Notes: generated by a model not told the origin, from the letters alone. 64,000 nucleotides of DNA from an uncultured Gammaproteobacteria bacterium (GCA_963783675.1 CAWAOU010000027.1:13221-77220); one strand, 5' to 3'; shown: positions 19,095 through 64,000, counted from the first letter of the stretch. Numbers and translations: made by a program.

Positions 19095-19102
19095 CGGCTT
19101 GG

Positions 19103-19492: not shown

Positions 19493-19545
19493 GCATTGGC
19501 TCCAAATAATCCTCACCCCGGGCTCCACGCCCTGGGGAGCCGCTG

Positions 19546-19681
19546 ATTTATTCTGGGCGAAGCAGATTGGAGTCTGAAATGTGCAGATTCAAGGCGCAGA
19601 TTGCGGGTAATAGTTGCTCTATTGCCAAAATTTGCAACGATGAAGCTGTGCATTTCAGTCCCAAGATGCACGTTCACGAAT
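19546..19681 (+). repeat. dispersed structured intergenic repeat, copy B (136 bp)
   Basis: Full-length alignment to copies A and C. 13-bp outer stem 19574-19586 / 19646-19658 with two G.U-type pairs. Confidence 0.75.
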
Positions 19682-19773
19682 AGATCAGCGGTTCCCTAGG
19701 GCTACCCTAAACAACTGATGGGTAAATACAAGCTCACACCGGCGCTGCCAGGGTCGAGACCGAGTACGCATTT

Positions 19774-33368: not shown

Positions 33369-33472
33369 CTTGGCTCCCCCACCCTGTTTGTGGCGGCATT
33401 TGGCTGCACCAATCCGGCTGCAGCGATTTGCCGTCCCTGACCCCGAACTTTAGTGCAGCCGGCGCCATTAAG

Positions 33473-33605
33473 GGGCCTCTGGTTTGTTCTGGGTGAAGCA
33501 GATTGGAGGGTGAAATCTACAGATTCAAGGCGCAGATCGCGTGTGACCGTCGGTCCATTGTCAGGATTTGCGACGACGAAGCTGTGCATTTGAGTCCCAA
33601 GATGC
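33473..33605 (+). repeat. dispersed structured intergenic repeat, copy C (133 bp)
   Basis: Aligns with copies A and B. More diverged in the central part and carries a compensatory C-G pair where A and B have U-A in the inner stem. Confidence 0.7.
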
Positions 33606-47258: not shown

Positions 47259-48098
47259 TTGAGCGAAATCCTGCCTCTGAGCGCGGCTGTGGTGGTGGAC
47301 ACAGACACCCTGAAGGGATATCTGGCTTTCGCCCACCGGCTGGTGAACGCCTCGGCCCAGGTGATAAAACCGCATTTCAGGGCCAACGGCAGGGTCGATA
47401 ACAAAGCCGGGCAAAGTGAGTACGACCCGGTCACACTCGCCGACCGGGATGCTGAAACAGCCATCCGGGCACTGATCCAGCAGCACCATCCCGACCACGG
47501 AATCTTCGGCGAAGAGCACGGTTTCGAAGCGGGGCGTTCGGGATTGACCTGGGTGATCGACCCCATCGACGGGACCCGAGCATTCATCACCGGTATGCCG
47601 CTGTGGGGCACGCTGCTGGCCCTGTTCGACGGCCAGCGGCCGCTGCTCGGAATCATGGACCAGCCGTTCACCGGCGAACGCTTTATCGGCAGCCGCCTGG
47701 GGGCCTGGCTGGAGCACGGAGGCCATCGCCACCCGCTGCGCACCCGCCCCTGTGACGACCTGGGGCACGCTGTCATGCAAACCACACATCCCGACATGTT
47801 TTCAGGCGACGCCGAGGCTGCGGCGTTCAATTCGCTGGTGAAGCGCGTCCAGCTCACCCGCTACAGCGGCGACTGCTATGCCTACTGCATGCTGGCCCAT
47901 GGTCTGATCGATCTGATTGTGGAGTCGAACCTGAAGCCGTATGACATCCAGGCGCTGATCCCGATCATCGAATCGGCAGGCGGGCGGGTGACGGATTGGC
48001 GGGGTAACGATCCGGTTCAGGGTGGACAAGTCGTTGCGGCCGGGGATGCACGACTGCATGCGCAAGCGCTGACGCTGCTGGCAGCGGGCGCGGTATGA
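47259..48098 (+). CDS. inositol monophosphatase family protein (histidinol-phosphatase HisN-like)
   Basis: WVIDPIDGTRAFITGMPLWGTLLAL and YSGDCYAYCMLAHGLIDL motifs. TTG start in the ORF track; the start is uncertain. Confidence 0.8.
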   Translation: MSEILPLSAAVVVDTDTLKGYLAFAHRLVNASAQVIKPHFRANGRVDNKAGQSEYDPVTLADRDAETAIRALIQQHHPDHGIFGEEHGFEAGRSGLTWVIDPIDGTRAFITGMPLWGTLLALFDGQRPLLGIMDQPFTGERFIGSRLGAWLEHGGHRHPLRTRPCDDLGHAVMQTTHPDMFSGDAEAAAFNSLVKRVQLTRYSGDCYAYCMLAHGLIDLIVESNLKPYDIQALIPIIESAGGRVTDWRGNDPVQGGQVVAAGDARLHAQALTLLAAGAV

Positions 48099-48113
48099 TC
48101 CCACCGACGGCGC

Positions 48114-48560
48114 TCAACCCCGCGGAAATCTCTGGGTGACCGGTCCATCCGCCGTCAGCAGCGTGTTGCTCAACACCCGTTCCTCGTGTTCCATACGCCA
48201 GCTCAGCAGTTTTTGCGCGTAGTGCAGCATTTGCTCCCGGTGGCCGGGGTCATTGGCGAGATTGTGAAATTCGTTGGGATCCCGCCTCAAATCGAACAGC
48301 AGCGGCGGCAGGGCGGTGAAGTGCACGTATTTGTAGCACGTGTCGCGGATCACGTTGAGCGCGCACTGGTCACTGGCCAAACCCAGTGCCACCTCGGCGC
48401 TCTGGGTCACAGGCTCGCGAAAATCAAAAGCCCAATGCACCTCTTCTCGCCAACGATCCGGCATCTCGCCCGCCAGCAGGGGGCTCAAAGACTGTCCGTC
48501 GCAGCCGGGCGGCGGCTGGATCCCCAGCCAGCATCTTGGTGTCGTTACATCCGGTTCCTG
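48114..48560 (-). pseudogene. sulfatase / alkaline-phosphatase-superfamily C-terminal fragment (5'-truncated)
   Basis: Only the C-terminal about 140 aa are present (...GIQPPPGCDGQSLSPLLAGE...LLFDLRRDPNEFHNLANDP...). The catalytic N-terminal domain is missing. Homology stops next to the lower-GC dsbA segment. Confidence 0.7.
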
Positions 48561-48592
48561 ATAAGAGGATTTACCGGTGTTTCAAACAAACA

Positions 48593-49249
48593 TCAACTTT
48601 CCCGGGCTTTTTCGGCTTTTTCTACGAGGAAGTTAATCACTTGGATCAGCGTTTCATGGCTTCCCGCCATGGATACCGAGGTTCGATATCGGCCGTCTAC
48701 GATGATCGCAGGTACTCCGGTGATGCCATATCGTCGGGACATGACGTGGGCGAAATTCAGTTTGTTTTCAACGGCGAAGGAGGAAAACGTATCTTTAACC
48801 GCTTGTCCGTCCGCTCCCATATCGGTTACCCATGCGGCTAATGCGTCGACGGTATCGATTCGTTTACGTTCTGCGTGGATGGCGTGGAAAAACTGGGCGT
48901 GGAATTCTTCGGTGAGTCCCAGGGCTTCGAAGGCGTAAAACGCTCTGGCGTGAAATGCCCACTGTTCATTAAGTACCGCTGGAATGGGAACAAATTCAAC
49001 GTTTTCTGGTTTGTTTTTTAGCCAATCAATGATGTATGGCTCAAGTCGGTAGCAATGAGGGCATCGGTACCAGAACATCTCAACCACTTCAATTTTATCC
49101 CCGGTTTGCACAGGCTGGATATCGGCGAGTAATTCATAATGCCCACCCTCTACGAAGGTGTTGTCTTGGGCCTGCAGAGGCGACAGAAAGAAGATGAACG
49201 CGAAAGCGAAGCTTCGCAATATTGAAGAGCGGGTGATCGTTTTTCTCAT
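48593..49249 (-). CDS. dsbA: thiol:disulfide interchange protein DsbA family
   Basis: Signal peptide MRKTITRSSILRSFAFAFIFFLSPLQA. CPHC active site (WYRCPHCYRLEP). Visibly lower GC than the flanks. Confidence 0.85.
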   Translation of the reverse strand: MRKTITRSSILRSFAFAFIFFLSPLQAQDNTFVEGGHYELLADIQPVQTGDKIEVVEMFWYRCPHCYRLEPYIIDWLKNKPENVEFVPIPAVLNEQWAFHARAFYAFEALGLTEEFHAQFFHAIHAERKRIDTVDALAAWVTDMGADGQAVKDTFSSFAVENKLNFAHVMSRRYGITGVPAIIVDGRYRTSVSMAGSHETLIQVINFLVEKAEKARES

Positions 49250-49254
49250 GATAG

Positions 49255-49817
49255 GAGTATAAGACGAACAAACGCCCTTTTCCGAAAGTTGATCGTGTAT
49301 CCCCAAGTCATCAAACAGTCGCCAAACCGCTTTTCAGTTTGGTGTCGGCCGTGATCGGCCCTTCTGGGCCGGCAGAAGCGGCCAAGATCGAGTAGTTCAG
49401 CCAATTTCTTAACGAATTCCCCGCATCGGGCCGAACGCGATCAAAGCCACAACGCTCAGCGTCGCAGTCGGGGGGTGTTACCGGGTAGCCCGGTTCAGTC
49501 GTCGAACCGTCCCGCCTGGGGCGGCGCCCGACACGGCGGCCGCCTCGTGGCTTGGGGCTCAACCGCTTTCGCATCCAGGTGGCTGAGGATCTTGTCGATG
49601 ACCTCCGGCTGCTCGATGCAGGCGATAATCCGCACCGCCCCACCGCAGGCCCGGCAGGTCTCAACGTCGATACCGAACACCCGCTTCAGACGCTGCGCCC
49701 AGGTCATTGAGGCGCGGCGTTCGGCCGGCGTCGCCTCCTCCCCATCCCCCGTCGCAGCACGCTGGCCTCCCCTGCCACGCTTGGCCGGTGTCACCCGCGC
49801 GCGGTATTTGCTGTTCG
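49255..49817 (-). mobile_element. IS91-family 3' (oriIS-proximal) fragment, copy 1 (563 bp)
   Basis: Near-identical to 59213-59775 and 62901-63463. Encodes only the last about 108 aa of the transposase (NSKYRARVTPAKR...). Ends exactly after an internal GTTC (ctgttcg) at 49817. Confidence 0.85.
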
Positions 49818-49975
49818 CAATCCTCGTCGGGAAGCCGCCATTCGTGATCGGTGCAGCAAAAGCCCGGAACAAGCCCGAAGTAATCATTCTATTTGCCTCA
49901 CTTCAACGGCCGATCCATAAACGGCCAACTCGAGGTGTAAAAGTGTGCCATGGGGAGCAAGCTTGGCTTTGCCAA

Positions 49976-50279
49976 CTAAGCTTGCGCCAAGACAGGCTGG
50001 ACTGCATTTGACCTGGTTGCCAAAGTCGTGGACGGGTATTCGCCGAACTCGCGTCTATAGGCGGCCGAAAACCTGCCGAGGTCGAAGAAACCAAACGAGA
50101 CAGCGACGTCGGTTACGGTTGTCCCGGACAAAGGAGCCGCCGAGAGTAGCCTCTGGCGCGCGCCGTGCAGCCTCTGCCGGCGCAACAGAGTGTAGACCGA
50201 GCAGCCGAACTCCGCCTGAACGCCGCGAGCCAGCGAGTTGACTCATAAAGAATGTAAGCGAAGGAGCGCGGCGGAGATT
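49976..50279 (-). pseudogene. AraC-family regulator C-terminal remnant
   Basis: SLARGVQAEFGCSVYTLLRRQRLHGARQRLL...VTDVAVSFGFFDLGRFSAAYRREFGEYPS is an AraC HTH-2 region. It has an in-frame TGA upstream and is cut by the IS at 50280. Confidence 0.6.
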
Positions 50280-51521
50280 GCGTTGCCTCATATCTTAGGT
50301 AACCGAAAGGAGACCAGGATATGGGCAAGAACGAGAGGCAGGCCTACCTGAAGGAGATCCGCTCTCGCTACCGGCGTTCCGGCCGCCAAGCGAAGGGTCG
50401 CATTCTGGACGAGTTCTGTGCCGTATGCGGCTACCATCGAAAGTACGCCATCCGGCTTTTGCACCGACCTTTGAAGCGGGCTCGGCGGCGCATCGGCCGC
50501 CCGCCGGTGTATGGCTCCAAGGAGCTGCTCACGGCGCTGAAACGGATCTGGTTCGCCACCGACCAGATGTGCTCGAAGAGACTGGTGGCGGTGTTGCCTC
50601 TGTGGTTGCCGTTTTACCGTGATGCCTACGAGCCTCTCAGCCCCGAGACCGAGCAGCAACTTCGCACCCTCAGCGCCGCCACCATCGATCGGCTGCTCAA
50701 AGCCCACCGCGTGCGGGCCGGCAAGGGCCGCTGCACCACCAAGCCCGGCACGTTGCTCAAGAACCAGATCCCGATCCGGACCGATCACTGGGACGTGCGC
50801 GAGCCCGGTTTTGTCGAGGCCGACACCGTTGCCCACTGCGGCAACAGCCTGGCCGGGGATTTCATCTGGTCGCTGACCCTGACCGACATCAACAGCGGCT
50901 GGACCGAGAACCGCGCCACTTGGAACCATGGCGCCCAGGGCGTCGTCACTCAGATCCGCGACATCGAAGCGCGCCTGCCCTTCGCCCTGCAGGGCTTCGA
51001 TTGCGACAACGGCTCGGAGTTTCTCAACTACCATCTGCTGCGCTACTTCACCAAACAGCGCGACAAACCCGTGCCCTTCACCCGTTCGCGCCCTTACCAC
51101 AAAAACGACAACGCCCACGTGGAACAGAAGAACTGGTCACACGTGCGCCAACTCTTTGGCTATGATCGACTTGAAAGACGCGAACTGCTGAGTCTGATGA
51201 ATGCGCTCTACGCCAATCACTGGTCGGCCTACCAGAACCACTTCTGCCCGACGCTCAAGCTGCTGGAGAAAACGCGTATCAACTCCAAATACCGCAAACG
51301 CTATGAGCCACCGAAAACACCCTATCAGCGCCTGCTCGAGTCAGAACACATCAGCGCTGAGGCTAAGGCTCAGCTTCGCACCGTCCACCAATCACTCAAC
51401 CCGTTCGAACTCAAACGCGCCATCGAACAGAAACTACGGGCAATCTTTAAGATCGTGAAAGTAACCACCAATGTGAGGCAACGTCTCTGACCTTCGGTAA
51501 CCTTTAGCAATGAGGCAACGC
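50280..51521 (+). mobile_element. 1.24-kb insertion sequence with DDE (integrase-core) transposase; family uncertain (ISNCY-like?)
   Basis: Terminal inverted repeats GCGTTGCCTCAT...AGGTaACCGAA (50280-) and the reverse complement at 51521 (12 of 12 terminal bp identical). There is an extra subterminal copy of tgaggcaacg at 51473-51482. It bounds a single ORF. Confidence 0.75.
50321..51490 (+). CDS. DDE-type transposase (rve/integrase core domain)
   Basis: 389 aa. Candidate DDE triad in FVEADTV, FDCDNGSEF and NAHVEQKNW. N-terminal HTH-like region. Confidence 0.8.
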   Translation: MGKNERQAYLKEIRSRYRRSGRQAKGRILDEFCAVCGYHRKYAIRLLHRPLKRARRRIGRPPVYGSKELLTALKRIWFATDQMCSKRLVAVLPLWLPFYRDAYEPLSPETEQQLRTLSAATIDRLLKAHRVRAGKGRCTTKPGTLLKNQIPIRTDHWDVREPGFVEADTVAHCGNSLAGDFIWSLTLTDINSGWTENRATWNHGAQGVVTQIRDIEARLPFALQGFDCDNGSEFLNYHLLRYFTKQRDKPVPFTRSRPYHKNDNAHVEQKNWSHVRQLFGYDRLERRELLSLMNALYANHWSAYQNHFCPTLKLLEKTRINSKYRKRYEPPKTPYQRLLESEHISAEAKAQLRTVHQSLNPFELKRAIEQKLRAIFKIVKVTTNVRQRL

Positions 51522-51657
51522 GCGAGTGTCAACTGCAACCGACCGGCTGTGACAGATCGTTTTGCGGCGGTGCGCTGCTGGAATCGACACGGTGTTCGGT
51601 AGACTTTCCGATTTTGCCGTGCATGTCATACATGTTCGAAAAACGCTATTTTACCTT

Positions 51658-54387
51658 ATGTCCATAATCCGCACGAAGCTTCACCGGCCCAGGACGTTGG
51701 CCGACGTCGTCAGCCGCGATCGGCTGAACGCACTTATGGATCGCGGGCTCAAGGCGCCGCTGACGCTGGTCTCAGCACCTGCCGGTTACGGTAAGAGCGT
51801 ACTCGTAAGTCGCTGGGCGGATTCCCTGGATTGTCCCTGCGCGTGGATCTCATTGGACGAGTCAGACAGCGATCTGACACAGTTTTTCGACTATCTCGTC
51901 ACCGCACTTGACGCGTCTATGCCGGGCTCATTCCCGGAGGCAGCGGATTTGGTGGGAGCCGGTCAACTTCCGCCCCCCTCTGTGCTGGCTGGCCCCCTGA
52001 TCAACGAGCTGGATACGATTGACGGGCCGTTCGTCCTGATTCTGGACGACTATCACCGCATTGAATTCACTTCCAAGGTTCACGTGCTTTTGTCGCACCT
52101 GCTGGAGCATCCACCACGGTATCTGCACCTGGTTCTGATTTCACGGCGTGACCCGCCGCTTGCACTGTGGGCGCTGCGTGCGGCGTCCATGCTCAATGAG
52201 ATACGGTTGGCGGATCTGCGGTTTCACGACGAGGAAGTTGTCGCGCTTCTCAATGCAAGCGCGTCGACCGAGGTCGGCGCGGAAGCGATTGCAGATCTGC
52301 AGCGGCAAGTCGAGGGTTGGGCAGTGGGTCTGCGTCTGGCGTGTTTGGCGTTGGGCCATGCACCGGATCCAACGAGTTTCCTTTCGACTCTCGAAGGAGG
52401 TATCCCGCACACCCAGGGCTATTTGCTGCGCGAGGTGCTCGCCCAGCAATCACCTGAGCTCGGGCGGTGCATGCTGCGCTCGTCAATCCTTGACCGCTTC
52501 TGTCCCTCGCTGATCGACGCCGTCTGTCTGTCCGATGCCCAGGCGACACCCGCAGCACCTGGCGATCGCAAGGACATGGATACGCATCTTTGGCAGGAAA
52601 TGTTCACCATCGGCCTCGATGACCATGGCGAATGGTTCCGCCACCATCACCTGTTCCGGAAGCTTCTTCGGGAGCAGTTGTCGCAAGTGGCGACAGATCG
52701 GGAGATTGCCACGCTGCACCTGCGAGCCAGCACGTGGTTCACCTCCCGAGGCCTCATCACGGAATCCATCGAGCACTGCCTGGCGGCCGACGATGTGCAG
52801 CTTGCGTCCGAGCTCGTCGAGCGTCACGCAGAGTCGGAATTCGCCTCTGACCATTGGTACGTCGTCGAGCGCTGGCTCGCGATGCTGCCGGTTGAAGCCC
52901 GACACGCGCGCCCAATGTTGTTGCTTGCCGAGGCATGGGTCAGGAATCTGCAATATCAGTTGGCCCGTGTGCCGCCCCTGATCGATGCGGCGGAGGCGCT
53001 GCTGTGCACGGAGGAGCCGACGCCCGCATCAGAGCGCGCGGCAATGGGGCAGATCGCCTTGTTTCGCGGCTACCTCACCTACTACGAAGGGCGAGGCGAG
53101 GCCAGTCTGTGCAGCCTGGAAGACGCCGTATCGAGTCTGTCTCAGACAGAGTCTCCATTCGTCGCCGACGCGCAGATGTTCCTCGGGCTGGCGCGCTGCA
53201 TGGTCGGTCGGCAAGATCAAGCGGTGGCGGCGCTGCGGGCCAGCTTGGATGCGGCTGATCCATCGCAGATCTACCTGCAAGGCCGCCTGATCGGGGGGCT
53301 GCTCTTTGGTCATCTGCTCGGCGGTGACTTACATGCGGCGCAAACGCAGGCGCTTCGGCTGTCCTATTTGTCGTCCGAGCATGACCTGCGCTTGAACCAG
53401 GCTTGGAGCCGCTACGCTCTCGGCTGGACGCGGCTCCAATCCGGGGAGTTCGGAGCCGCGTTGGACGACTTCGAAGAGGCGGTTGAGCTACGCTACCTCA
53501 TGGAGCCCATGGCGGCCGCCGACGCAATTGCGGGTCTCGCTCTAACGCGGCAACTCATGGGGCTCGAGGCTCAGGCGACGCGCGGTCGTGACCAACTGCG
53601 GGGGTTTGCTCAGGAGCTTAACGGCACCGCGTATTTCGCGATATCGCAATCGTGTTCCGCGAGGCTCGCGCTTCTGTGCGGAAACACTGCACAGGCGCGA
53701 CAATGGGCGCGCTCCGTTGAGGACAATCCAAAGCCTCACAGCCTTTTCATCTGGTTGGAAGTTCCGCAGATCACGGCTGCCCGCATTCTGATTGACGAAG
53801 GTTCTCCTACGTGTCTGGAACGGGCGTGCAAGCTGCTGGGTGCAGTGCGGGAATACAGCAGCGGATGTCGATTCCAATGCCAGATCATCGAAGTGGCCGT
53901 TCTGGACGCTCTTGCCCTGGAGCGGCAGGGCAAGCAGGACAGGGCGGCCGAGGCCCTCCGGGAAGCGATCTCCCAGGCGAGGCCAGGGAGTTGGCTGCGG
54001 CCGTTCCTCGAATCGGGTGCGCCCCTAGTGCGACCACTCGAGCGACTGCGCGAACAGGGTGATGAGAGCGACTTTATCGATCGGATCCTGCGCTCACTCG
54101 GGAACGCGCGACGGAGCGCGACTGTTCACCAGGATGCATCGGGCGTTCGCACTGAACCCTCTGTCACAGTCGATCGCTTGTATCCGGATGTCCTCACCAA
54201 CCGCGAGCTCGACATTATCGAGCTGCTCGCCCAGCGCTTGCCTAGCAAGGAGATCGCCGGCAGGTTGTTCATCTCCATACACACCGTCAACGCCCATCTC
54301 AAGCGCATCTATCGCAAGCTCGATGTCAACAGCCGTCGCCAGGCGGTGGAGCGAGCGGCCCGGGCCGGGCTGATCGATCGGCGGTAG
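51658..54387 (+). CDS. LuxR-family regulator with N-terminal STAND/AAA ATPase and TPR-like middle region (MalT/LAL type)
   Basis: Walker A LVSAPAGYGKS, Walker B FVLILDDYH, long helical repeat region, and C-terminal LuxR HTH (LTNRELDIIELLAQRLPSKEIAGRLFISIHTVNAHLKRIYRKL). Start at ATG 51658. Confidence 0.85.
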   Translation: MSIIRTKLHRPRTLADVVSRDRLNALMDRGLKAPLTLVSAPAGYGKSVLVSRWADSLDCPCAWISLDESDSDLTQFFDYLVTALDASMPGSFPEAADLVGAGQLPPPSVLAGPLINELDTIDGPFVLILDDYHRIEFTSKVHVLLSHLLEHPPRYLHLVLISRRDPPLALWALRAASMLNEIRLADLRFHDEEVVALLNASASTEVGAEAIADLQRQVEGWAVGLRLACLALGHAPDPTSFLSTLEGGIPHTQGYLLREVLAQQSPELGRCMLRSSILDRFCPSLIDAVCLSDAQATPAAPGDRKDMDTHLWQEMFTIGLDDHGEWFRHHHLFRKLLREQLSQVATDREIATLHLRASTWFTSRGLITESIEHCLAADDVQLASELVERHAESEFASDHWYVVERWLAMLPVEARHARPMLLLAEAWVRNLQYQLARVPPLIDAAEALLCTEEPTPASERAAMGQIALFRGYLTYYEGRGEASLCSLEDAVSSLSQTESPFVADAQMFLGLARCMVGRQDQAVAALRASLDAADPSQIYLQGRLIGGLLFGHLLGGDLHAAQTQALRLSYLSSEHDLRLNQAWSRYALGWTRLQSGEFGAALDDFEEAVELRYLMEPMAAADAIAGLALTRQLMGLEAQATRGRDQLRGFAQELNGTAYFAISQSCSARLALLCGNTAQARQWARSVEDNPKPHSLFIWLEVPQITAARILIDEGSPTCLERACKLLGAVREYSSGCRFQCQIIEVAVLDALALERQGKQDRAAEALREAISQARPGSWLRPFLESGAPLVRPLERLREQGDESDFIDRILRSLGNARRSATVHQDASGVRTEPSVTVDRLYPDVLTNRELDIIELLAQRLPSKEIAGRLFISIHTVNAHLKRIYRKLDVNSRRQAVERAARAGLIDRR

Positions 54388-54436
54388 TCAATCGCCGTCA
54401 TCACGCCTCCAGTCGTTGTCCAGCCCCACCACTTAC

Positions 54437-54468
54437 CCAGTTTCTACCCTGTTTTTAGCCAGTTTCTA
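54437..54468 (+). promoter_or_regulatory. direct repeat CCAGTTTCTA x2 (22-bp periodicity), candidate operator
   Basis: ccagtttcta at 54437-54446 and 54459-54468, between the LuxR-type regulator and the downstream hydrolase/porin genes. Confidence 0.3.
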
Positions 54469-54661
54469 GGGACGCCGGGAACGCCGGCGCGACGCATACT
54501 CCTACCCATCGCTCAGGGTAAACGCCTGAGTGCAGGACGCCCCAAACCGGATGCCCTGCTTGCGTTCCGAAACCGTGATTGAAAGGGTTCCGGATCGGCT
54601 GATGGCAGTGTCCCGTGGACGGGCGGAGTTGAATGTCTGTAGCGATGAGTAACGCCCTGCG

Positions 54662-54958
54662 ATGATCGCACCACCCCGAAAAGCGCGCATCGATTTCGGT
54701 CGTCCCGCGCACTATCGAATTGTCGTTGAAGGCAGCTTGGGTGCGCAGTGGCGTCACCGCCTGGGGGACCTGGCAATCGTCACCACAATCGAGGGAGACG
54801 GGGTACCCCGAACGGCGGTCTCTGGTCGATTCGCGGATCAGGCGGCGCTGAAGGGACTACTCGACATTCTGTATGACTTGCATCTTCCCATCGCGCTGAT
54901 CGAGCAGATCGAGGACGCGACCAACCCAACCCCAAACCCTCTGAGGACAGAAACATGA
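54662..54958 (+). CDS. hypothetical small protein
   Basis: 98-aa ORF whose stop overlaps the start of the next gene (ATGA). The HYRIVVEGSL...DQAALKGLLDILYDLHLPIALIEQI pattern recurs in small proteins next to hydrolases (from memory, unverified). Confidence 0.5.
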   Translation: MIAPPRKARIDFGRPAHYRIVVEGSLGAQWRHRLGDLAIVTTIEGDGVPRTAVSGRFADQAALKGLLDILYDLHLPIALIEQIEDATNPTPNPLRTET

Positions 54959-55848
54959 GCCTTCCAGGAAAGACGATGAAGATCGGCGGCTACACCTACC
55001 ACGTCAGCGATCAGGGCGAGGGCGACAAGGTCGCCATGCTGGTCCACGGTATGCCCGACGACGGCAGCTGCTGGAAGTACCAGGCCCCGGCACTGCTCAA
55101 GGCAGGCTACCGCGTGATCGTGCCGGACACCCTCGGCTACGGCGGGACCGACCGTCCGGTGGAGGTCGAGCACTACAAGCTCGAGAAGATCATCGACCAC
55201 ATGTTCGAGATCATCGAGAAGCTGGGCCTGAAGGACATCAATTTGATGGGCCACGACTGGGGGTCGGCCATCACCTGGCCCATGATTCTCCAGCGACCGG
55301 AACTGTTCCGCAAGTACATCTCCATGTCCGTCGGACACATAGGGTGCTTTTACGGCCAGGCCTTCTCTACCCCGGAGCGGATTTACGAGGTCCTGATGCG
55401 CAACTGGTACATGTACATGCACGCCCTGGACGGGATGGAGGAGCTTTACATGAGGGACGATTTTGCGTTCTTCCGAAATTTCTTCTGTCAGCACCCCGAG
55501 GCGGAAAAAGTCATAGCGGCCATCAAGGAGACCGGCCGCATCGAGTGGCTCAACTACGACAAGGCCAACCACGTCACCCAGGACTATCTGGCGTATGCCA
55601 AAGATCCCGAAGGCTTCGGTCCGAGATGCAAGGTACCGGTCATGGTGATGTTCCCCGAGGACGATATGTTCCTTTGGAAAACCCAGGCCATCGACACCCC
55701 CAAGCTCATGGACGCCGAGTGCCGCATCGAGATCATCCAGGGCGGCCACTGGTCCATGCTCGACCACCCGGACGACGTCAATAGGCTGATGCTGGAGTGG
55801 TTCGAGTCAGAGCCCAGCACGGCGCGTGCGGATGTGAAAGAAGCCTGA
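54955..55848 (+). CDS. alpha/beta hydrolase (epoxide hydrolase / haloalkane dehalogenase-like)
   Basis: LVHGMPDD oxyanion region, GHDWGS nucleophile (Asp) elbow, and C-terminal GGHW catalytic His region. Confidence 0.85.
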   Translation: MSLPGKTMKIGGYTYHVSDQGEGDKVAMLVHGMPDDGSCWKYQAPALLKAGYRVIVPDTLGYGGTDRPVEVEHYKLEKIIDHMFEIIEKLGLKDINLMGHDWGSAITWPMILQRPELFRKYISMSVGHIGCFYGQAFSTPERIYEVLMRNWYMYMHALDGMEELYMRDDFAFFRNFFCQHPEAEKVIAAIKETGRIEWLNYDKANHVTQDYLAYAKDPEGFGPRCKVPVMVMFPEDDMFLWKTQAIDTPKLMDAECRIEIIQGGHWSMLDHPDDVNRLMLEWFESEPSTARADVKEA

Positions 55849-55940
55849 TCTGTCTGGCAAGGTGGTGGCGGCCAGTGCACATGCACCGGCCGCCACGGCG
55901 ATCAGCAGCAGATTGCAACGATAAACTGGAGTCAATTGGA

Positions 55941-57251
55941 ATGATTGCGCGCTTCGAAAAACCCGGTGCGCGACTGCTGTATCGTTTTTGCGTTACAGGC
56001 GTATGGGCACTGACGTTGGCTCAGGCTGCCTTCGCTCAAGACTTGAACAGCGAAGGGCAGCCAAGGGCTTTCGGTGGGCCGGATGCCGTACAGAACAGGA
56101 TCGAATCAGACAGCGTTTCAACAGATGCACCTCTGAAGCTGGATTTCCTGAAGCCCTGGTACCAATGGAAAGACAAGCTCAAGGAGGAACACGGCCTGGC
56201 GTTCGGGGTGGAGTACAACTCGGTGTACCTGACGGCCAGCGACCGCCTACCCGGTGCCGACAAAGATGCGGCTGGCGGTATCTTTCGCTTCAGCGGTGTC
56301 TGGGAGGCGTTTGGCCGGGGCTCGGCTCACCCTGGCAACTTGAGCTTTCTTGTCGAGCGCACGGACGAATTCACCAGTACGGGACCGAGTTCGTTACTTG
56401 GCGAGAGCCTGGGCTATGCCGGAATCTCAAACATTCCCTACAACGACGAAGGGTGGCGGCTCAACACGCTCTACTGGGATCAGAAGTTCCAGGGTGGAAA
56501 GTATGAGGTGGTCGGTGGTTACCTCGATATCAGCGATTACGTCGATGTATTCCCGCTGGTCAGCCCCTGGACAGATTTTTTCAATTACGCCTTTAGCATC
56601 GGGGTCGGCGCCCTCGACCTTCCCAGCGATGGCGCACTGGGGTTTGCGGGGGCGGCCTGGTTGACAGATACGGTCTACGCAATGGCGGGCTTTGTCGACG
56701 AGAATGCGGATGCCACCGATCCCTTGGAAGGGTTTGATACATTCTTCAACGATAGGGAGTACTTCAAACACGTCGAGATAGGCTGGACCGGGGCTTCGCA
56801 GGAGGCCTACTACCTCAACAACGTTCATCTGACCCTGTGGCAGGCGGATGAACGCGATGAGTCGGGCGTGGAGGACGGTTGGGGGGGCGTGCTGTCATTT
56901 AACCACACCATCGGCGACAAATGGCTGGTGTTCGCCCGGACCGGGTGGGCGGAGGACAGCGGCAGCCTGCTGGAACGGTCGGTCAGCATTGGGGGCGGCT
57001 ATACGCCCGGCGGCATGGCAACGCTGGGGTCGGGAAGCCAGTTTGGATTCGGCCTCAATTGGGGCCGGCCGAACGATGCCCTGTTCGGTACGAATCTGGA
57101 TGACCAATACGCAACGGAGGTCTACTATCGCTGGCAATTGGCCGATGAAATCGCGATCACACCGAGTCTGCAACTACTGATCGACCCGGCGCTGAACCCG
57201 GAGGAAGATACGCTCTGGGTAGGTGGTCTGCGGGCACGACTGGCATTTTGA
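55941..57251 (+). CDS. OprB-family (carbohydrate-selective-like) porin
   Basis: Signal peptide ...LAQAAFAQD. FGGPDAVQNRIESD and alternating beta-strand pattern ending ...GGLRARLAF (aromatic terminus). Confidence 0.65.
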   Translation: MIARFEKPGARLLYRFCVTGVWALTLAQAAFAQDLNSEGQPRAFGGPDAVQNRIESDSVSTDAPLKLDFLKPWYQWKDKLKEEHGLAFGVEYNSVYLTASDRLPGADKDAAGGIFRFSGVWEAFGRGSAHPGNLSFLVERTDEFTSTGPSSLLGESLGYAGISNIPYNDEGWRLNTLYWDQKFQGGKYEVVGGYLDISDYVDVFPLVSPWTDFFNYAFSIGVGALDLPSDGALGFAGAAWLTDTVYAMAGFVDENADATDPLEGFDTFFNDREYFKHVEIGWTGASQEAYYLNNVHLTLWQADERDESGVEDGWGGVLSFNHTIGDKWLVFARTGWAEDSGSLLERSVSIGGGYTPGGMATLGSGSQFGFGLNWGRPNDALFGTNLDDQYATEVYYRWQLADEIAITPSLQLLIDPALNPEEDTLWVGGLRARLAF

Positions 57252-57395
57252 TCCGCCGTTTCGTCACAGTTGAGGAAGCTGTGATCTGCTCGACAATCCC
57301 GTCACACCGACCGAAGTGGAGGGATCCATCTATTGCCAGAAATCGCGCATTACACCCATGACAAACGGGCAGTAGCCGCAATTGAAGTGACAGCT

Positions 57396-58649
57396 ATGAC
57401 TCATACCAAGCCACAACTGCTGTTTCCGATTGCAGCAGCACTGCTGATAGCCGGGTGCGCCGGCAATACCCTGATCGAGACCCCCAGCGTTTACGAGAAG
57501 ACCGGAACACCTTTGTTCGTCGACCTGGAGCCCGCGCTACAGGGGGATACGCTCGAGGTGCTTTACGTAACCGACCGCCTGCCGCAAAAGGTGCAATCCG
57601 GCGTAGCCACGTACGGCAGCGGGCGCTCCATGTCGAGCGCGCTGGGCGTCGCCCAAGTGGCGATCGAGCCCGATAACGGCAAACCGAACACCACACGGAA
57701 AATCGAACTGATGGCAGTCGACGAACTGGTCCGCTTCCCGGAGACACCGTATCTGTATCGTGTCGCGGACGGTGGCCGCATCGAGATCGAGCCAACCGCC
57801 GTCCTAGAGCGCGAAACTGCCTGGCTGGAGGCACGCGAACAGATCGTCGAGCGTTTGGCATTGACGCCCAAGAAGGACGTCTTCCTCGATGTGCACGGAG
57901 TCGGAACCGATTTTGATGGAGCGGTGCTGGAGCTGGCGGCGTTCTGGCATTATCTGGGGAGAGAGGGCGTTCCCATAGCTTACACTTGGCCGGCGGGCAG
58001 CGAAGGGCTTCTGTTCTTTTACACCACCGATCGGGAATCGGGCGAGTTCACGATACTGCATCTGAAAGAGTTTCTGCGCCTTCTCGCTGAGATTCCGGAG
58101 GTGGAGCGCATTCATGTCACAGCCCACAGCCGCGGCACGGATGTCGTGATAACGGCGCTGCGCGAGTTGATCATCGAGGCAAGAGCCAAGGGACTCGATC
58201 CTCGCACGCACCTCAAGGTCGAAAACCTCGTTCTTGTCGCCGCGGATATCGATCTGGAAGTCGACATGCAACGCAACGAGGGTGAGGCCATTGCCCCCGC
58301 GTTCGGCCGTACGACCGTTTACACCAATGCCGAGGACAAGGCCCTGGCAGCTGCTTCGGGCCTGTTCAGCAGCCAGCAGCGTGTCGGCAGCGTGGATCTG
58401 AGCGAGCTGACCGATCGGCAGCGGGAATTCGTGCGTCGCTCCAGCGATCTCGATTTCATCGTATACGAGGGCATAGGCGGTGGCTTCTTTCGACACGGCT
58501 ACTACGAAGATCCGGTAGTGAGCTCGGACATCCTGATGCTGCTACGCTACGGCTGGGGGCCCAACGAGGGTGAGCGCCAAGGTTTGCAACAGCTTGACGA
58601 GAACACCTGGCGGATTGATTCAACCTACTGGAGTACCGCAGGCCGATGA
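57396..58649 (+). CDS. lipoprotein, alpha/beta hydrolase of DUF900 type
   Basis: Lipobox LIAGC. HVTAHSRGTDV nucleophile-elbow-like motif. Length and layout as in DUF900 esterases. Confidence 0.7.
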   Translation: MTHTKPQLLFPIAAALLIAGCAGNTLIETPSVYEKTGTPLFVDLEPALQGDTLEVLYVTDRLPQKVQSGVATYGSGRSMSSALGVAQVAIEPDNGKPNTTRKIELMAVDELVRFPETPYLYRVADGGRIEIEPTAVLERETAWLEAREQIVERLALTPKKDVFLDVHGVGTDFDGAVLELAAFWHYLGREGVPIAYTWPAGSEGLLFFYTTDRESGEFTILHLKEFLRLLAEIPEVERIHVTAHSRGTDVVITALRELIIEARAKGLDPRTHLKVENLVLVAADIDLEVDMQRNEGEAIAPAFGRTTVYTNAEDKALAAASGLFSSQQRVGSVDLSELTDRQREFVRRSSDLDFIVYEGIGGGFFRHGYYEDPVVSSDILMLLRYGWGPNEGERQGLQQLDENTWRIDSTYWSTAGR

Positions 58650-59212
58650 GAAGGCGGTTGCTGCCAGAGCCGCACCTGACTATGCAATCAACTCGGCCTT
58701 GCTGAGGTGCCGAACCGATCTGTTCGCTCTGTCTCCGCTGGCATCCGAACGTTCACGAGGCGTGCCCGGGGCCTTGTTCGCGACGCGGACGCAAGCATCC
58801 GGGCGATCAACAGAGGGTTTGCCGGTGAATCTGGGAAAACCGAGGTCGGTCTGCCGGCGCCGCATCGATGAGAGCAGGCGGGCCTGACCGCGGTCGACGC
58901 GGCGAAGTCCCTGGTGTCACTTACGGTTGGGCTGCGTGTTCTGGCTCGCGGTACGTTCGATGCGGTGGGCTTGTTGGCAATAAAGAACAACATCCTGAGG
59001 CTGATCGGACATTAGAACGACGTTTGATGGCCCTGGTCCCGCGTGCAGTGGAATTGTGGGTGTATTCCCACCGCCCCGCTGTTGAGGCTACACAGTACGT
59101 ATGGCTGGTTTTCAGAGCCTCGTGATTCAGGGCTGTTCAGTGCCATAATCCATCTATGGAAGACCTCGGCATGGACGAGAACATGAACATCGCCTACGGT
59201 GCGGCCGTATCG

Positions 59213-60745
59213 GAGTATAAGACGAACAAACGCCCTTTTCCGAAAGTTGATCGTGTATCCCCAAGTCATCAAACAGTTGCCAAACCGCGTTTCAGTTTGG
59301 TGTCGGCCGTGATCGGCCCTTCTGGGCCGGCAGAAGCGGCCAAGATCGAGTAGTTCAGCCAATTTCTTAACGAATTCCCCGCATCGGGCCGAACGCGATC
59401 AAAGCCACAACGCTCAGCGTCGCAGTCGGGGGGTGTTACCGGGTAGCCCGGTTCAGTCGTCGAACCGTCCCGCCTGGGGCGGCGCCCGACACGGCGGCCG
59501 CCTCGTGGCTTGGGGCTCAACCGCTTTCGCATCCAGGTGGCTGAGGATCTTGTCGATGACCTCCGGCTGCTCGATGCAGGCGATAATCCGCACCGCCCCA
59601 CCGCAGGCCCGGCAGGTCTCAACGTCGATACCGAACACCCGCTTCAGACGCTGCGCCCAGGTCATTGAGGCGCGGCGTTCGGCCGGCGTCGCCTCCTCCC
59701 CATCCCCCGTCGCAGCACGCTGGCCTCCCCTGCCACGCTTGGCCGGTGTCACCCGCGCGCGGTATTTGCTGTTCGGCGCAAACACCCCGTGGAAACGGGT
59801 CAGATTGACTCTCGGTTTCGGCACCAAAGCGGCCAGCCGGGCAATGAAATCCAGCGGCTCGAACATCACATGCGTAGTACCGTCGCGGTACGGGGTCTTC
59901 AGCTGGTAACGAACGTTCCCATTCGCCGTGAGCGACAGGCGCTTTTCCGACACCGCCGGGCGGCTGATGTAGCGGCACAGCCGCTCCAGCTTCCCTCTTT
60001 CATCCGCTCTCGCCGCCACGCCCGCGTGCAGCGAGAAACCGGCCACCTTGCCCACCCCGTCATCGAACCGATCATCGCAGGCCGGCAGCGTCCGTAGCGT
60101 GAATACCTTGCGCCCCTGCTGCGGCCCGACAGCGATGCGGTAGGTGATCGACGAACCCAGGAGTTGATGCATAGGCCCGGCCTCGAAGTGGTCGCCGGCC
60201 AGATAGCAGTTCTCCGCATCGCGCTCCAGCAGCCCCTGCCGTTCGAGGTAGCGGCCGATACGCAGCGCCAGGGTCTGCGCCAGCCGGCTGAGTTCGGTGC
60301 TCGTCGGCGCCTTCACCCAGCGGAATCGGAGCGAGCCGTCCGAGCCCTCCACGTACACCCCATCGAGGAACAGCATGTGAAAGTGGATGTTCAGGTTCAG
60401 CGCGCTGCCGAAGCGCTGGATCAGCGTGACCGCGCCGCTCCGGGCCGTCTTGCAGGAAAAACCGGCCTTCTTGGTCAGGTGTGTGGCGATGCAACGGTAG
60501 ACGATGCCCAGCACCCGGCCCATAACAGCAGGGCGGCTGGCGAACAGGAAACGTAAGGGATACGGAACGCTCAACACCCACTGGCGCACCGGCTGCTCGG
60601 CAAACACCTCGTCCACCAGCAATGCCGCGCTCTCGGCCATGCGCCGGGCACCGCAGCTGGGACAAAAGCCCCGGCGTTTGCAACTGAACGCCACCCATTG
60701 ATCGCCATGGCAACTGTCGCAGCGCAGCACCACGTGCCCTGCAAA
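59213..60745 (-). mobile_element. IS91-family element, copy 2 (oriIS end intact, 5'/terIS side missing)
   Basis: Left boundary GAGTATAAGACGAAC is shared with copies 1 and 3. The right boundary is approximate, where the transposase frame merges with a truncated dehydrogenase gene. Confidence 0.8.
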
Positions 60746-60781
60746 GCTGGACGACTCCTGATCCAACGCCTCCGGAGGCAC
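59453..60781 (-). CDS. IS91-family (Y2/HUH rolling-circle) transposase, N-terminally truncated
   Basis: VLRCDSCHGDQWVAFSCKRRGFCPSCGARRMAESAALLVDEV zinc-binding region and the rest of the IS91-type core. The usual about 55 N-terminal residues preceding this motif are absent. Confidence 0.85.
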   Translation of the reverse strand: MPPEALDQESSSFAGHVVLRCDSCHGDQWVAFSCKRRGFCPSCGARRMAESAALLVDEVFAEQPVRQWVLSVPYPLRFLFASRPAVMGRVLGIVYRCIATHLTKKAGFSCKTARSGAVTLIQRFGSALNLNIHFHMLFLDGVYVEGSDGSLRFRWVKAPTSTELSRLAQTLALRIGRYLERQGLLERDAENCYLAGDHFEAGPMHQLLGSSITYRIAVGPQQGRKVFTLRTLPACDDRFDDGVGKVAGFSLHAGVAARADERGKLERLCRYISRPAVSEKRLSLTANGNVRYQLKTPYRDGTTHVMFEPLDFIARLAALVPKPRVNLTRFHGVFAPNSKYRARVTPAKRGRGGQRAATGDGEEATPAERRASMTWAQRLKRVFGIDVETCRACGGAVRIIACIEQPEVIDKILSHLDAKAVEPQATRRPPCRAPPQAGRFDD

Positions 60782-61334
60782 CCGTTACCAAAACTCTTTC
60801 GCCTTCTGAGACCCGTGCTCTTCTGAGCATATGCTCCCCGGTGATATAAGCACAACAGAAGGTTGCAAGTTCGGTGTCTGTTAAGGATGTCTCAACACAG
60901 TGCGCATTCTCTGCGGGCACCGATACGTACTCGGCAAACCCGCCAGGTCGACCTGATCCAATATAATCGTGGCTTGGGATATCGTTTCCAGGGCCGGCAT
61001 ACATTCCAAAATCGACCATGACACGCCGGCCGATAAGGGAGGAATCAATATCTGTACCGCAACCAACAATAACACCCGCTATGTCGGCACCTTGGATTAT
61101 TGGGAATGCTAGCGGACTATCTCCAAAAGAGGCTACCGCATCCGGATCATCAGATACACCATAGGCACCTTCTCGAACCCGGATATCCGTATTATTAATT
61201 CCGCAGGCACCAACTCGAACAAGCACTTCGCCTGAACCAACGTCGGGGGTCGGCCAGTTATTCTCGAACACGAGCTTTCCTGGTCCGCCGTGCCCGGTTA
61301 ACAACATTGCTTTCATCGTCTTTGGAATGGGCAT
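60740..61334 (-). pseudogene. zinc-type alcohol dehydrogenase / quinone oxidoreductase (MDR family), 3'-truncated
   Basis: MKAMLLTGHGGPGKLVFENNWPTPDVGSGEVLVRVGACGINNTDI...VLVTGASGGVGS, then the reading frame runs into IS91 sequence. Only about 195 aa of an expected about 330 are present. Confidence 0.75.
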
Positions 61335-61403
61335 GGCTTAACTCGGGTTGGGAATTTAGTGAATTGGAAACGTGCCACATAACGTCAAAGTTGAGTGGGG
61401 GTT

Positions 61404-62312
61404 CTACCCCGTCTCCACGGACGGTTTTAAAATGGCTGAAAACTTCTGATCTTGTGCAGCAACTCTACGCCGCATTCTGGAATTGTGAAATCGCTCAATG
61501 TAGTCGAACACATCAGCCCTGGCTTCATTCCGGGTGCGGTACCGGCGATGGTGAATCCTTTCGCGTTTGAGTACCCCGAAGAATCCCTCACACGCGGCGT
61601 TGTCGCCGCAATGACCTACAGCACTCATACTGCTGATCAAAGTGTTCTGCCCCAGGAACCGCTGGTAGTCGCCGCTAGTGAATTGGCAGCCTCGATCGGA
61701 ATGTAAAATCACCTTTGTGGCCTCCTGGCGCTGCCAGATAGCCATCTCAACCGCTCGAATGACCATGTGCCGATCCTGTCGATGATGCATCGCCCAGCCA
61801 ATGACAAGCTTGCTGAACAGGTCGAGAACGACGCACAGAAACAGCTTCCCTTCTAATGTCTTGATCTCCGTGATGTCAGTGACCCATTTGCTTTCCGGCT
61901 CCAATGCCGTGAAGTCCCGGCGCAGATGATTCTCAACGCCCGCGGGACGCATACTGGAACCTTTCCAGCGCTTGGGCTTTTTCCGTGGCCAGCCTTGTAT
62001 GTTGTGAGATGCCATCAGGCGTGCAACACGGTTCAAACTGGCTGTCTCACCCTCGGCAGCCAAATCCTCGTGCATACGCGGCGCACCAATTACGCCACCA
62101 CTGTCGTCGTGGATCTCGCGTATGCGTACCAGCAGACGCGCATTGTCCGATTCACGAGGACTCGGCTTGCGTGATACCCAAGCGTAATACCCGCTGGATG
62201 AAACATTCAGGCAGCGGCACATAAGACGAACAGGAAAATCATCGCGACAACGTTGGATCGCCTGATACCTCAGGACGATTCCTTCGCAAAGAACGTTGCC
62301 GCTTCGCGTAAA
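61404..62312 (-). CDS. IS3-family transposase OrfB (DDE), expressed by -1 frameshift from OrfA
   Basis: [30 protein letters not shown]...[10 protein letters not shown]...[16 protein letters not shown]. The -1 frame is open back to a T TTT TTA heptamer at 62309-62315. The ORF-track ATG is at 62222. Confidence 0.85.
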
Positions 62313-62563
62313 AAATCCCGTTCCTTCTTCACCCGCGCCAACTCGCGCTTGAGCCGGGCAACCTCCTCATCCCGAGGTGTGCCGGAGCCGCTGAACGCTT
62401 TGCCAGATACCGCACCGGCTTCACGTTTCCAGCGGCTCAGCAGATTGGGATTGATCCCGATCTCAAGCGCGACCTGGCGGCAACTCACCCCTGGCTGGCG
62501 AGTCAATGCAACGGCTTCTTGCTTGAACTCCGGGCTGTACTTTCTTCGCTTAGACATGAACAC
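62270..62563 (-). CDS. IS3-family transposase OrfA (HTH)
   Basis: [46 protein letters not shown] is canonical IS3 OrfA. Confidence 0.9.
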
Positions 62564-62900
62564 TCCTTCGGCACATTGTGCCTCTTCTTGGAAGTGTCCG
62601 TGTTAACGGGGTAGAACCCGTCCTTCAGACAGGTCAGTCGCGGTCAGGTAGGCGAGGAGTTGGTACAGGTCGCCATGCTGCAGTCCTGGCGCCCTGAGGC
62701 CCTTGTATTTGACGTCGCCAATAAAGTGGCAGATGCCCGCCCTCCCCCCAGCCGATGTCCGGCCTAAGGCGCACTGATTCGCCCTGGTCGAGGGTCAGCG
62801 CATGGCCAACGCACTCCTGCGGGAACGATCGCTGTGTAAGGTTAAGTTCTTCTCCTTAGGGTAAGGGTCAACGACCAGATAAGATCCCCGGGCAGGCTGT

Positions 62901-63627
62901 GAGTATAAGACGAACAAACGCCCTTTTCCGAAAGTTGATCGTGTATCCCCAAGTCATCAAACAGTCGCCAAACCGCTTTTCAGTTTGGTGTCGGCCGTGA
63001 TCGGCCCTTCTGGGCCGGCAGAAGCGGCCAAGATCGAGTAGTTCAGCCAATTTCTTAACGAATTCCCCGCATCGGGCCGAACGCGATCAAAGCCGCAACG
63101 CTCAGCGTCGCAGTCGGGGGGTGTTACCGGGTAGCCCGGTTCAGTCGTCGAACCGTCCCGCCTGGGGCGGCGCCCGACACGGCGGCCGCCTCGTGGCTTG
63201 GGGCTCAACCGCTTTCGCATCCAGGTGGCTGAGGATCTTGTCGATGACCTCCGGCTGCTCGATGCAGGCGATAATCCGCACCGCCCCACCGCAGGCCCGG
63301 CAGGTCTCAACGTCGATACCGAACACCCGCTTCAGACGCTGCGCCCAGGTCATTGAGGCGCGGCGTTCGGCCGGCGTCGCCTCCTCCCCATCCCCCGTCG
63401 CAGCACGCTGGCCTCCCCTGCCACGCTTGGCCGGTGTCACCCGCGCGCGGGATTTGCTGTTCGGCGCAAACACCCCGTGGAAACGGGTCAGATTGACTCT
63501 CGGTCTGGGCACCAGGGCCGCCAGCCGGGCAATGAAATCGAGGGGTTCAAAGATGACGTGCGTCGTACCGTCGCGGTACGGGGTCTTCAGCTGGTAACGA
63601 ACGTTCCCATTCGCGGTGAGCGACAGG
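62901..63627 (-). mobile_element. IS91-family 3' fragment, copy 3 (727 bp, mosaic)
   Basis: 62901-63450 is near-identical to copies 1 and 2. 63451-63627 aligns with copy 2 with about 15 substitutions, mostly silent in the transposase frame. Homology ends at 63627. Confidence 0.8.
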
Positions 63628-63934
63628 GGGATGGATTCCGCATGGCGTTCCAGCTACGAGACCGCAAGTTTGTGATCGGCGGTAATGCCGGGTGGTGATC
63701 GCGAACGCTTAACCGCGCCGGGCTTTGCTTTGGTCATAGCGATGGGGCGTCTCCTCTTGCGGTTTTCCTCAATGCTCCACGTTTCTAGCCGGGGTCGCCG
63801 GACGCGCAACGGGCGGCCCGCTCCATTCGCTGCGCTCCCGTGTTGCCCGTTCCCCTGCGGTGCCCGTCCGGCTTGTCCCCCGTCTTCGATGTTTCGCGTG
63901 TTTCGGAAAAACCGCTTAACAGAGGAGACCAACC

Positions 63935-64000
63935 ATGACCAAGAACAGCGCACCCCGGCAGGACGTTTACACCCGCGTCACCGACAAGATCGTCGCCGAT
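63935..64000 (+). CDS. ArdC-like / DUF1738 N-terminal domain protein (partial, runs off window)
   Basis: GAGGAG Shine-Dalgarno, then MTKNSAPRQDVYTRVTDKIVAD, which resembles the N-terminus of ArdC/DUF1738 ssDNA-binding proteins of conjugative elements. Only 22 codons are visible. Confidence 0.45.
   Translation, partial: MTKNSAPRQDVYTRVTDKIVAD

Follow-up and report, generated by a model that had tools for sequence, protein, structure and literature searches.

ISCR elements are credited with assembling many multi-resistance regions, and their movement has mostly been inferred from the finished structures found on clinical plasmids. One-ended transposition of IS91 and IS1294 serves as the mechanistic model for segments that are anchored at oriIS and vary at their far endpoints. 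Here we describe a stretch of 64,000 nucleotides from an uncultured gammaproteobacterium (GCA_963783675.1, CAWAOU010000027.1:13221-77220; the whole stretch is called the window), in whose last part, between positions 48,114 and 64,000, truncated copies of an ISCR relative alternate with unrelated genes. We consider it rather probable that this region is a chromosomal array derived from one ISCR and built by rolling-circle read-through together with homologous recombination. Comparable structures have been described for ISCR2: in the tet(X), sul2/floR and SXT contexts, intact and partial copies of the element flank cargo, and for tet(X) tandem structures are described too (PMC7722449). PMC6218425 cites Stokes 1993 for partial duplications of the 3'-conserved segment (3'-CS), and Tavakoli 2000 and Garcillan-Barcia 2001 for one-ended transposition of IS91 and IS1294.

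Self-comparison of the window gave a single three-copy direct repeat within 46-64 kb. The exact starts of the copies (49255, 59213 and 62901) and their spacings (9958 bp between copies 1 and 2, 3688 bp between copies 2 and 3) are those given in the original prediction, a note made from the sequence alone, and the first letters common to all three are GAGTATAAGACGAACAAACGCCC. The copies differ from each other at 2-4 positions over their common stretch of 563 bp (identity at least 99.3%), which excludes a chance origin of the repeats. All three lie on the minus strand in the same direction, and each consists of the 3' part of one IS91-family/ISCR transposase gene followed by a non-coding tail of 240 bp that ends in oriIS:

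49255-49817 (563 bp), minus strand: ISCR copy 1, oriIS end, 240 bp and transposase codons 393-498 only (106 codons)
59213 to about 60735 (about 1523 bp), minus strand: ISCR copy 2, oriIS end and transposase codons about 73-498
62901-63627 (727 bp), minus strand: ISCR copy 3, oriIS end and transposase codons 338-498 (161 codons)

The truncation points were placed by alignment to a relative of 500 amino acids (aa); the copies start at its residues 73 (approximately; copy 2), 338 (copy 3) and 393 (copy 1), so that all three are 5'-truncated. In copy 2 the HUH motif (HFH) and the tyrosine motif RYISR can be read in the translation, and the first 72 codons or so are gone together with terIS; it is the truncated tnpA that had been assigned to the second oriIS module. 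The three modules themselves are real, although modules 1 and 3 are not the bare ends they had been taken for, since they carry 106 and 161 C-terminal transposase codons. Copy 2 also contains a patch (59817-59927) with 14 mismatches in 110 bp, many of them 3 nucleotides apart, while the rest of it is near-identical to the other copies. This patch was compared with copy 3, with the full-length copy of a sister strain (contig CALOET010000045.1 of GCA_942492415.1, 78 kb, labelled L103 and L109) and with two metagenome copies (L081 and L082). The latter four agree mutually, and therefore the divergence of 8.5% found between copies 2 and 3 over their last 164 bp is confined to copy 2; the idea that these copies belong to different ISCR lineages was discarded, the divergence being a peculiarity of the patch. 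The patch looks like a short gene-conversion tract, perhaps received from a diverged ISCR outside the window.

The longest transposase open reading frame (ORF; 59453-60781, minus strand, 442 aa) belongs to copy 2 and matches the Pfam families Zn_Tnp_IS91 (PF14319, 3.5e-11) and Y2_Tnp (PF04986, 1.7e-35); both domains are present in the full-length transposase of the sister strain as well. Among the NCBIfam models the highest score went to NF052416, "ISCR element clade Ia family transposase": copy 2 reached 578 bits over profile positions 79-508 of 509, against only 88 bits with the generic IS91 model, and the full-length copy reached 670 bits. The curated cutoff of the clade Ia model, 925 bits, is above both scores, which would fit a new relative better than a named member. 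Identity to ISVsa3 (ISCR2) is about 75% for the protein and about 74% for the DNA, and metagenome proteins of 497-500 aa are 82-87% identical to the transposase. Judged from these comparisons of sequence, the element is a new relative of ISCR2/ISVsa3 and not ISCR2 itself.

The same kinship is seen at the ends. The outer end GAGTATAAGACGAACAAACGCCCTTTT aligns with the ISCR2 end GTATAGGAAGAATAAACGCCCTTTT that adjoins sul2, and in all three copies the reading on the transposase strand, ...AAAAGGGCGTTTGTTCGTCTTATACTC, aligns with the ISCR2 and Psychrobacter ISCR ends. The tail of 240 bp compares with an oriIS region of 232 bp in ISCR1 (PMC6218425). The 5' limit of the element was set in the sister strain at L103 position 566, 279 bp upstream of the ATG (two contexts compared; L097), and this terIS end is kept in none of the three window copies. 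No target duplication was seen at the oriIS flanks in the compared contigs. The transposase domains, the oriIS end and, on the oriIS side, the lack of inverted repeats and target duplications are in keeping with an ISCR. Neither the oriIS flanks nor the truncation points showed a consistent tetranucleotide that could mark a target or a termination site. A LexA box such as the one described for ISCR2 (PMC13393415) has no strict match ahead of the transposase gene, and a simple scan gave no outward sigma-70-like promoter from oriIS 1 toward the adjoining dsbA gene.

In a separate 5.9-Mb contig from ENA (L083), which carries a relative with 82% identity (P0004), 5'-truncated ISCR fragments that keep oriIS lie at 738-819, 4034-4812 and 17320-18600. 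Given these fragments in an unrelated genome, one-sided truncation seems general for this ISCR group.

The sister strain has in common with the window the core genes, the cut in a pehA sulfatase gene, dsbA, copy 1, an AraC remnant, an ISNCY element and a block of cargo genes (cargo block 1). The reverse complement of L103 corresponds to window 54133-59939 at 99.93% and then resumes directly at window 63628. In this comparison of presence and absence between related strains, the two differ by exactly one repeat-bounded unit:

59940-63627, no strand: unit of 3,688 bp present in the window and absent in the sister strain, with limits in register with the direct repeats

The absent unit contains the distal part of copy 2, a dehydrogenase fragment, an IS3 element, an McrC scrap and copy 3. 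Exactly this kind of unit polymorphism results when direct repeats recombine, and it is possible, if rather unlikely, that recombination is all that happened here: the ISCR would have inserted repeatedly or been duplicated, its 5' parts would have been lost by deletion or insertion sequence (IS) events, and the cargo would have been reshuffled, with no read-through capture at this locus. The patch in copy 2, as evidence of short gene-conversion tracts, the lack of target duplications at the IS3 and ISNCY elements, which suggests recombination or deletion breakpoints, and the truncation points and pehA cuts devoid of a termination motif all speak for this explanation. It accounts less well for the one-sidedness of the truncations, because all of the truncated copies, at least five in number, keep oriIS and lose the 5' end, whereas random deletion should be less one-sided. 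Another point against it is the 5' side of the element, where J-domain, IMPase and pehA fragments, about 5% divergent from the resident locus, are as expected of captured upstream DNA.

These fragments were read in the sister strain, in which the array can be followed past the 64-kb end of the window. Its ArdC has the ArdcN and MPTase-PolyVal domains. The next gene (L109 13834-14892) encodes a Fic/HTH protein that matches the PADLOC model of SoFic, an anti-phage defence, over almost the full length (1.3e-51), while the one after it (L109 14949-16568, 539 aa) had no match in Pfam, NCBIfam or PADLOC, its plasmid matches being only weak and to rhizobial hypothetical proteins. ArdC, the SoFic-like Fic gene and the 539-aa gene form cargo block 3, which in the sister strain ends at a full-length ISCR of 2.0 kb (498 aa, P0243), oriented like the window copies and lying about 5 kb past the window end. 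On the upstream side of this copy come the 279 bp of its own 5' region, a J-domain fragment of 40 codons and then a duplicate of the inositol monophosphatase (IMPase)/pehA boundary, the resident form of which delimits the array on the left:

47259-48098, plus strand: inositol-monophosphatase-family (IMPase) gene, the last intact core gene (Pfam Inositol_P, sister-strain gene call)
48114 to about 48532, minus strand: pehA-type sulfatase remnant, C-terminal 139 codons (NCBIfam PehA profile positions 374-499 of 506)
48533-48592, no strand: junction of the pehA remnant with the dsbA 3' flank, left edge of the accessory region, with the same junction in the sister strain

The duplicate runs for 440 bp to the end of the sister contig and is about 95% identical, in direct orientation, to window 47970-48409; within L109 the two stretches, 639-1078 and 18702-19141, are direct repeats with 95.5% identity. 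The duplicate takes in the 3' end of the IMPase gene and the 3' part of pehA and thereby brackets the array, as read in the sister contig, the window ending earlier. The junction on the terIS side was recovered independently in assemblies L104 and L105.

Concerning the sulfatase, the gene is indeed truncated, as the original prediction had it, but its missing N-terminal half does not lie at the far end of the array, where the direct duplicate is found instead. The sulfatase is a truncated duplicate, nothing was found to indicate one gene split into two halves, and the layout is a partial flanking duplication rather than a simple insertion into a gene. The remnant has a host-like composition (GC 61%; GC at third codon positions, GC3, 0.73), and its homology to protein P0121 begins at about 48530, with a Trp codon. 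The idea that the pehA/dsbA junction hides a degenerate oriIS was rejected, the score of the local alignment being reached by 118 of 500 shuffles. Positions 1-48098 fairly deserve the label of core, with housekeeping genes that include DAHP synthase, the glycine cleavage P and T proteins, MurB, sulfite reductase, photolyase and Pcm.

Two smaller features of the sister contig belong to this part. The J-domain (DnaJ) fragment (L103 441-565) is truncated on both sides, lies between the ISCR 5' end and the IMPase duplicate, and is a trace of an earlier element context. The sister strain is also without the ArdC upstream region and first codons (window 63824-64000 compared with L109 at about 12790), its ArdC call starting at ArdcN position 24; since the gene is missing its start, a second small deletion separates the two strains besides the unit of 3,688 bp.

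The continuation bears on the proposal that the segment from about 48.5 kb is a single integrative conjugative element or integrase-borne island lying in the sulfatase gene, with the ISCR copies as mere passengers. This was suggested by the ArdC-like gene, of a kind typical of conjugative elements, that starts at 63936, and part of the cargo has a foreign GC content. However, the sister ArdC leads to the Fic gene, the 539-aa gene, the full-length ISCR and the duplicate of the core boundary, and neither window 48.1-64 kb nor the 6.3 kb beyond it in the sister strain yielded an integrase, a relaxase, a coupling protein or a type IV secretion gene. In that extension, which comes from the sister strain rather than from the window contig, neither the other half of the sulfatase nor an integrase appeared; a lack of conjugation and integration genes downstream is what the original prediction itself had named as refuting it. 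No tRNA or att-like target was seen, the far flank differs from the missing pehA half, and the cargo at the site varies between strains unit by unit. We therefore hold an island to be scarcely credible here, and in the annotation of this genome the ArdC gene should not be taken as a marker of a conjugative element.

The variation at the site extends to other strains. The relevant population was found by a metagenome scan for the oriIS end and by exact protein look-ups; among species-representative genomes there was no close synteny, the best IMPase match (Plasticicumulans, Competibacteraceae) being 65% identical, with pehA not adjacent to it. A third strain (contigs L092 and L088) is 99.4% identical to the core, and the same value holds for the IMPase gene in L092. 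In this strain pehA is cut at 48317 and is followed by a different stretch of 2.8 kb, encoding a coiled-coil protein and a trypsin-like protease, and then by the same ISCR in the same orientation. The pehA cuts thus differ among strains (about 48532, 48317 and about 48360). The last is implied by protein P0237, whose adjoining cargo is known only as a divergent peptide of 24 residues; the adjoining cargo was read for the window/sister type and for L092/L088, and these two differ. Across the compared contigs, the oriIS end of this ISCR adjoins at least 10 different sequences, and at least 5 different 5' truncation points occur, with the oriIS end kept every time.

The population clearly contains several structural variants, and the assemblies behind both the window and the sister contig are of the metagenome type. 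If near-identical repeats of 0.6-2 kb had been mis-joined, the order of the array, the absent unit and the duplication would mix strains or loci, and the junctions of unit 2 were indeed found in no other contig (copy 2/dehydrogenase, IS3 and McrC scrap/oriIS 3 were looked for). On the other hand, no two copies share their flanks or their truncation point, which constrains the order within the window. All left-hand junctions recur in the sister contig, as does the junction of copy 3 with ArdC, which had no match in an exact search of metagenomes. The junction of cargo block 1 with oriIS 2 is spanned by five independent Logan contigs in addition to the sister strain, and the terIS-side junction recurs in L104 and L105. 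An artefact of this kind seems to us quite improbable.

We return to the array built from one ISCR by read-through and recombination. The resemblance to ISCR-type arrays that had been proposed from the window holds on comparison with other contigs, which together present an IS91/ISCR transposase, ISCR2-like oriIS ends in one orientation, defined truncation points, a one-unit difference between strains, a distal full-length copy, a flanking duplication and other cargo in another strain. There are at least four copies in the same orientation, three of them 5'-truncated in the window and one full-length in the sister strain, and behind them lies unrelated DNA: the regulator/hydrolase/porin block, the dehydrogenase, IS3 and McrC scraps, and the ArdC/SoFic block. 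The read-through model agrees better than random decay with the one-sided truncations, with the fragments of J-domain, IMPase and pehA sequence found 5' of the element and with the several pehA cuts.

From these structures we infer rolling-circle read-through, a transposase acting in trans and a possible order of events. The full-length copy would be the source of transposase. Replication would start at oriIS and proceed across the transposase gene, and if terIS is absent or passed over, it would extend into the upstream DNA, the products being circles or strands made of oriIS, ISCR and captured DNA. Homologous recombination, either between ISCR copies or through a captured host segment, could then stack such products and take them out again. 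In this way a circle with an IMPase/pehA piece from a relative of about 5% divergence may have recombined with the resident locus, giving the partial duplication that brackets the array. If the intact copy does act in trans, the truncated copies, which have no terIS, would be obligate read-through substrates. A stronger version, which we think unlikely, is that the truncated copies bearing oriIS are functional non-autonomous units, mobilised in trans with their upstream DNA, and that the array is a working system of gene capture and shuffling in a natural population. Were this so, the population variants at one chromosomal site would record rolling-circle capture by an ISCR as a time series, the first from nature, in which a host chromosomal segment is among the captured DNA.

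Some observations weigh against an origin by read-through. Neither transposition nor a circular intermediate was observed, and for ISCR in general experimental proof of transposition was lacking as of 2018 (PMC6218425). The endpoint of a pure rolling-circle event should adjoin oriIS, but after the pehA cut dsbA intervenes in the window, and the 2.8 kb of cargo in L092; alignment against 500 shuffles found no oriIS remnant between the pehA cut and dsbA. No termination motif was found at the oriIS flanks, the truncation points or the pehA cuts. If the sister strain lost its unit by recombination between copies 2 and 3, the crossover must have fallen in the last 12 bp of homology, or copy 3 must have been converted later; the patch in copy 2 shows that short conversion tracts do occur. 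Finally, the full-length copy and the duplication were read only in the sister contig, and the link across the repeat of 2 kb could be an assembly error.

The remaining features of the accessory region are the cargo genes and the other insertion sequences, among which the regulator, the hydrolase and the porin of cargo block 1 had been recognised correctly and were found again by Pfam and NCBIfam, the last gene being a DUF900 hydrolase (HTH, helix-turn-helix; MDR, medium-chain dehydrogenase/reductase):

48593-49249, minus strand: dsbA, 218 aa (Pfam DSBA; GC 49.5%, GC3 0.53)
49818-50233, minus strand: AraC-family C-terminal HTH remnant (about 80 codons, roughly 49990-50233) and its 3' flank (HTH_18 profile positions 12-78)
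50234-51527, plus strand: ISNCY/ISBj12-like IS, transposase 50321-51490 (tblastn to annotated ISNCY elements)
51658-58649, plus strand: cargo block 1 (Pfam, NCBIfam and sister-strain gene calls; GC host-like)
51658-54387, plus strand: MalT/LuxR regulator, in cargo block 1
54662-54958, plus strand: ORF of 98 aa, in cargo block 1
54976-55848, plus strand: alpha/beta hydrolase, in cargo block 1
55941-57251, plus strand: OprB porin, in cargo block 1
57333-58649, plus strand: DUF900 hydrolase, in cargo block 1
58650-59212, no strand: non-coding tail of cargo block 1, adjoining oriIS 2, with no MDR C-terminus or other ORF
60736-61334, minus strand: zinc-type medium-chain dehydrogenase, N-terminal 200 codons or so (Pfam ADH_N; NCBIfam quinone-oxidoreductase/ADH families)
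61399-62619, minus strand: IS3-family element, orfA 62270-62563, orfB 61404-62222, inverted repeats of 24 bp
62620-62900, minus strand: McrC C-terminal remnant adjoining oriIS 3, a weak match (PF10117, E = 4.5e-4, under the family cutoff)
63628-64000, plus strand: ArdC upstream region and start (ATG 63936), first gene of cargo block 3, identity confirmed via the sister strain

The ATG of dsbA lies 5 nucleotides outside the oriIS end of copy 1, and the gene is read in the same direction as the transposase gene. Its GC content (49.5% against 61% in the core) is as low as expected from the original prediction, which had also placed an IS3 element between modules 2 and 3, found at 61399-62619, and an ArdC-like start near the window end, which the gene of the sister strain confirms as ArdC. 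By composition, dsbA and the dehydrogenase fragment (GC 52.6%, GC3 0.46) are foreign. In a metagenome-assembled genome of a gammaproteobacterium, mpl is followed by the nearest native homologue of dsbA (82% identical); the notion of a low-GC donor in which a single ISCR insertion had dsbA on one side and the dehydrogenase on the other is unsupported, the native gene being preceded by mpl.

Copy 2 is fused at about 60735 to the dehydrogenase fragment. What had been called a truncated "MDR" gene is truncated and encodes a medium-chain dehydrogenase/reductase, and it is not a drug-resistance gene. A simple insertion of copy 2 into the dehydrogenase gene was ruled out, as there is no C-terminal dehydrogenase coding sequence to the left of oriIS 2. 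The IS3-family element has no clear target duplication, and the McrC remnant (62620-62800, minus strand) is cut by it.

The ends of the ISNCY/ISBj12-like IS were set by copies of 95-96% identity in L090 and L093. A split of the AraC gene by this IS could not be demonstrated: the edge of the IS is exactly where the HTH_18 match begins, the score gains nothing from the sequence beyond the IS, and the window IS has no target duplication, so that only a remnant cut at the IS edge can be described. In L090 (424-1716) and L093 (8923-9436) the same kind of IS interrupts the oriIS region of a further ISCR copy and has a GAGTAC target duplication. Another repeat, of 135-160 bp, occurs in the housekeeping part of the window in three copies about 80% identical (15807-15969, inverted; 19535-19686; 33472-33605), and it looks like an intergenic repeat of the REP/MITE type (repetitive extragenic palindrome/miniature inverted-repeat transposable element).

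When the locus is set beside the described systems, the greatest likeness is to ISCR2, with which the element shares the transposase family (about 75% identity in amino acids and about 74% in nucleotides), a homologous oriIS end and an oriIS tail of similar size. As in ISCR2 arrays, intact and 5'-truncated direct copies bracket unrelated cargo, and units are gained or lost between strains. The element differs from ISCR2 in its profile score (670 against the 925 bits of the cutoff) and in that the LexA box upstream of the transposase gene is not conserved. The array differs from those of ISCR2 in its host and site, an uncultured environmental gammaproteobacterium and its chromosome, and in its cargo (dsbA, the regulator/hydrolase/porin block and ArdC/SoFic), which has no antibiotic-resistance genes.

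With the complex class 1 integrons of ISCR1 the locus has in common that the 5' (terIS) side of the ISCR is fused to a truncated host segment, with the cargo on the oriIS side, and that a partial direct duplication of the fused segment closes the structure, in our case in the sister contig. A gene also stands directly outside oriIS in the orientation of the transposase, dsbA taking here the place of qnrA, dfrA or blaCTX-M. In contrast to those integrons, the duplicated segment is the chromosomal IMPase/pehA boundary instead of the 3'-CS, its copies differ by 5%, several units are stacked instead of one, and no sigma-70-like outward promoter came out of the simple scan. Unlike IS91 and IS1294, there is no conserved tetranucleotide of the GTTC/CTTG type beside the oriIS ends or the variable endpoints.

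The co-existing variants comprise one strain without a unit and another with different cargo, at least three pehA cuts and at least ten oriIS contexts, and a population of this kind is a useful natural test case for ISCR mobilisation and a place in which to look for intermediates directly. These variants support the view that ISCR-driven stacking of genes is a general process and not a by-product of antibiotic selection. The locus is an environmental, chromosomal example of the known ISCR-array architecture, without resistance genes.

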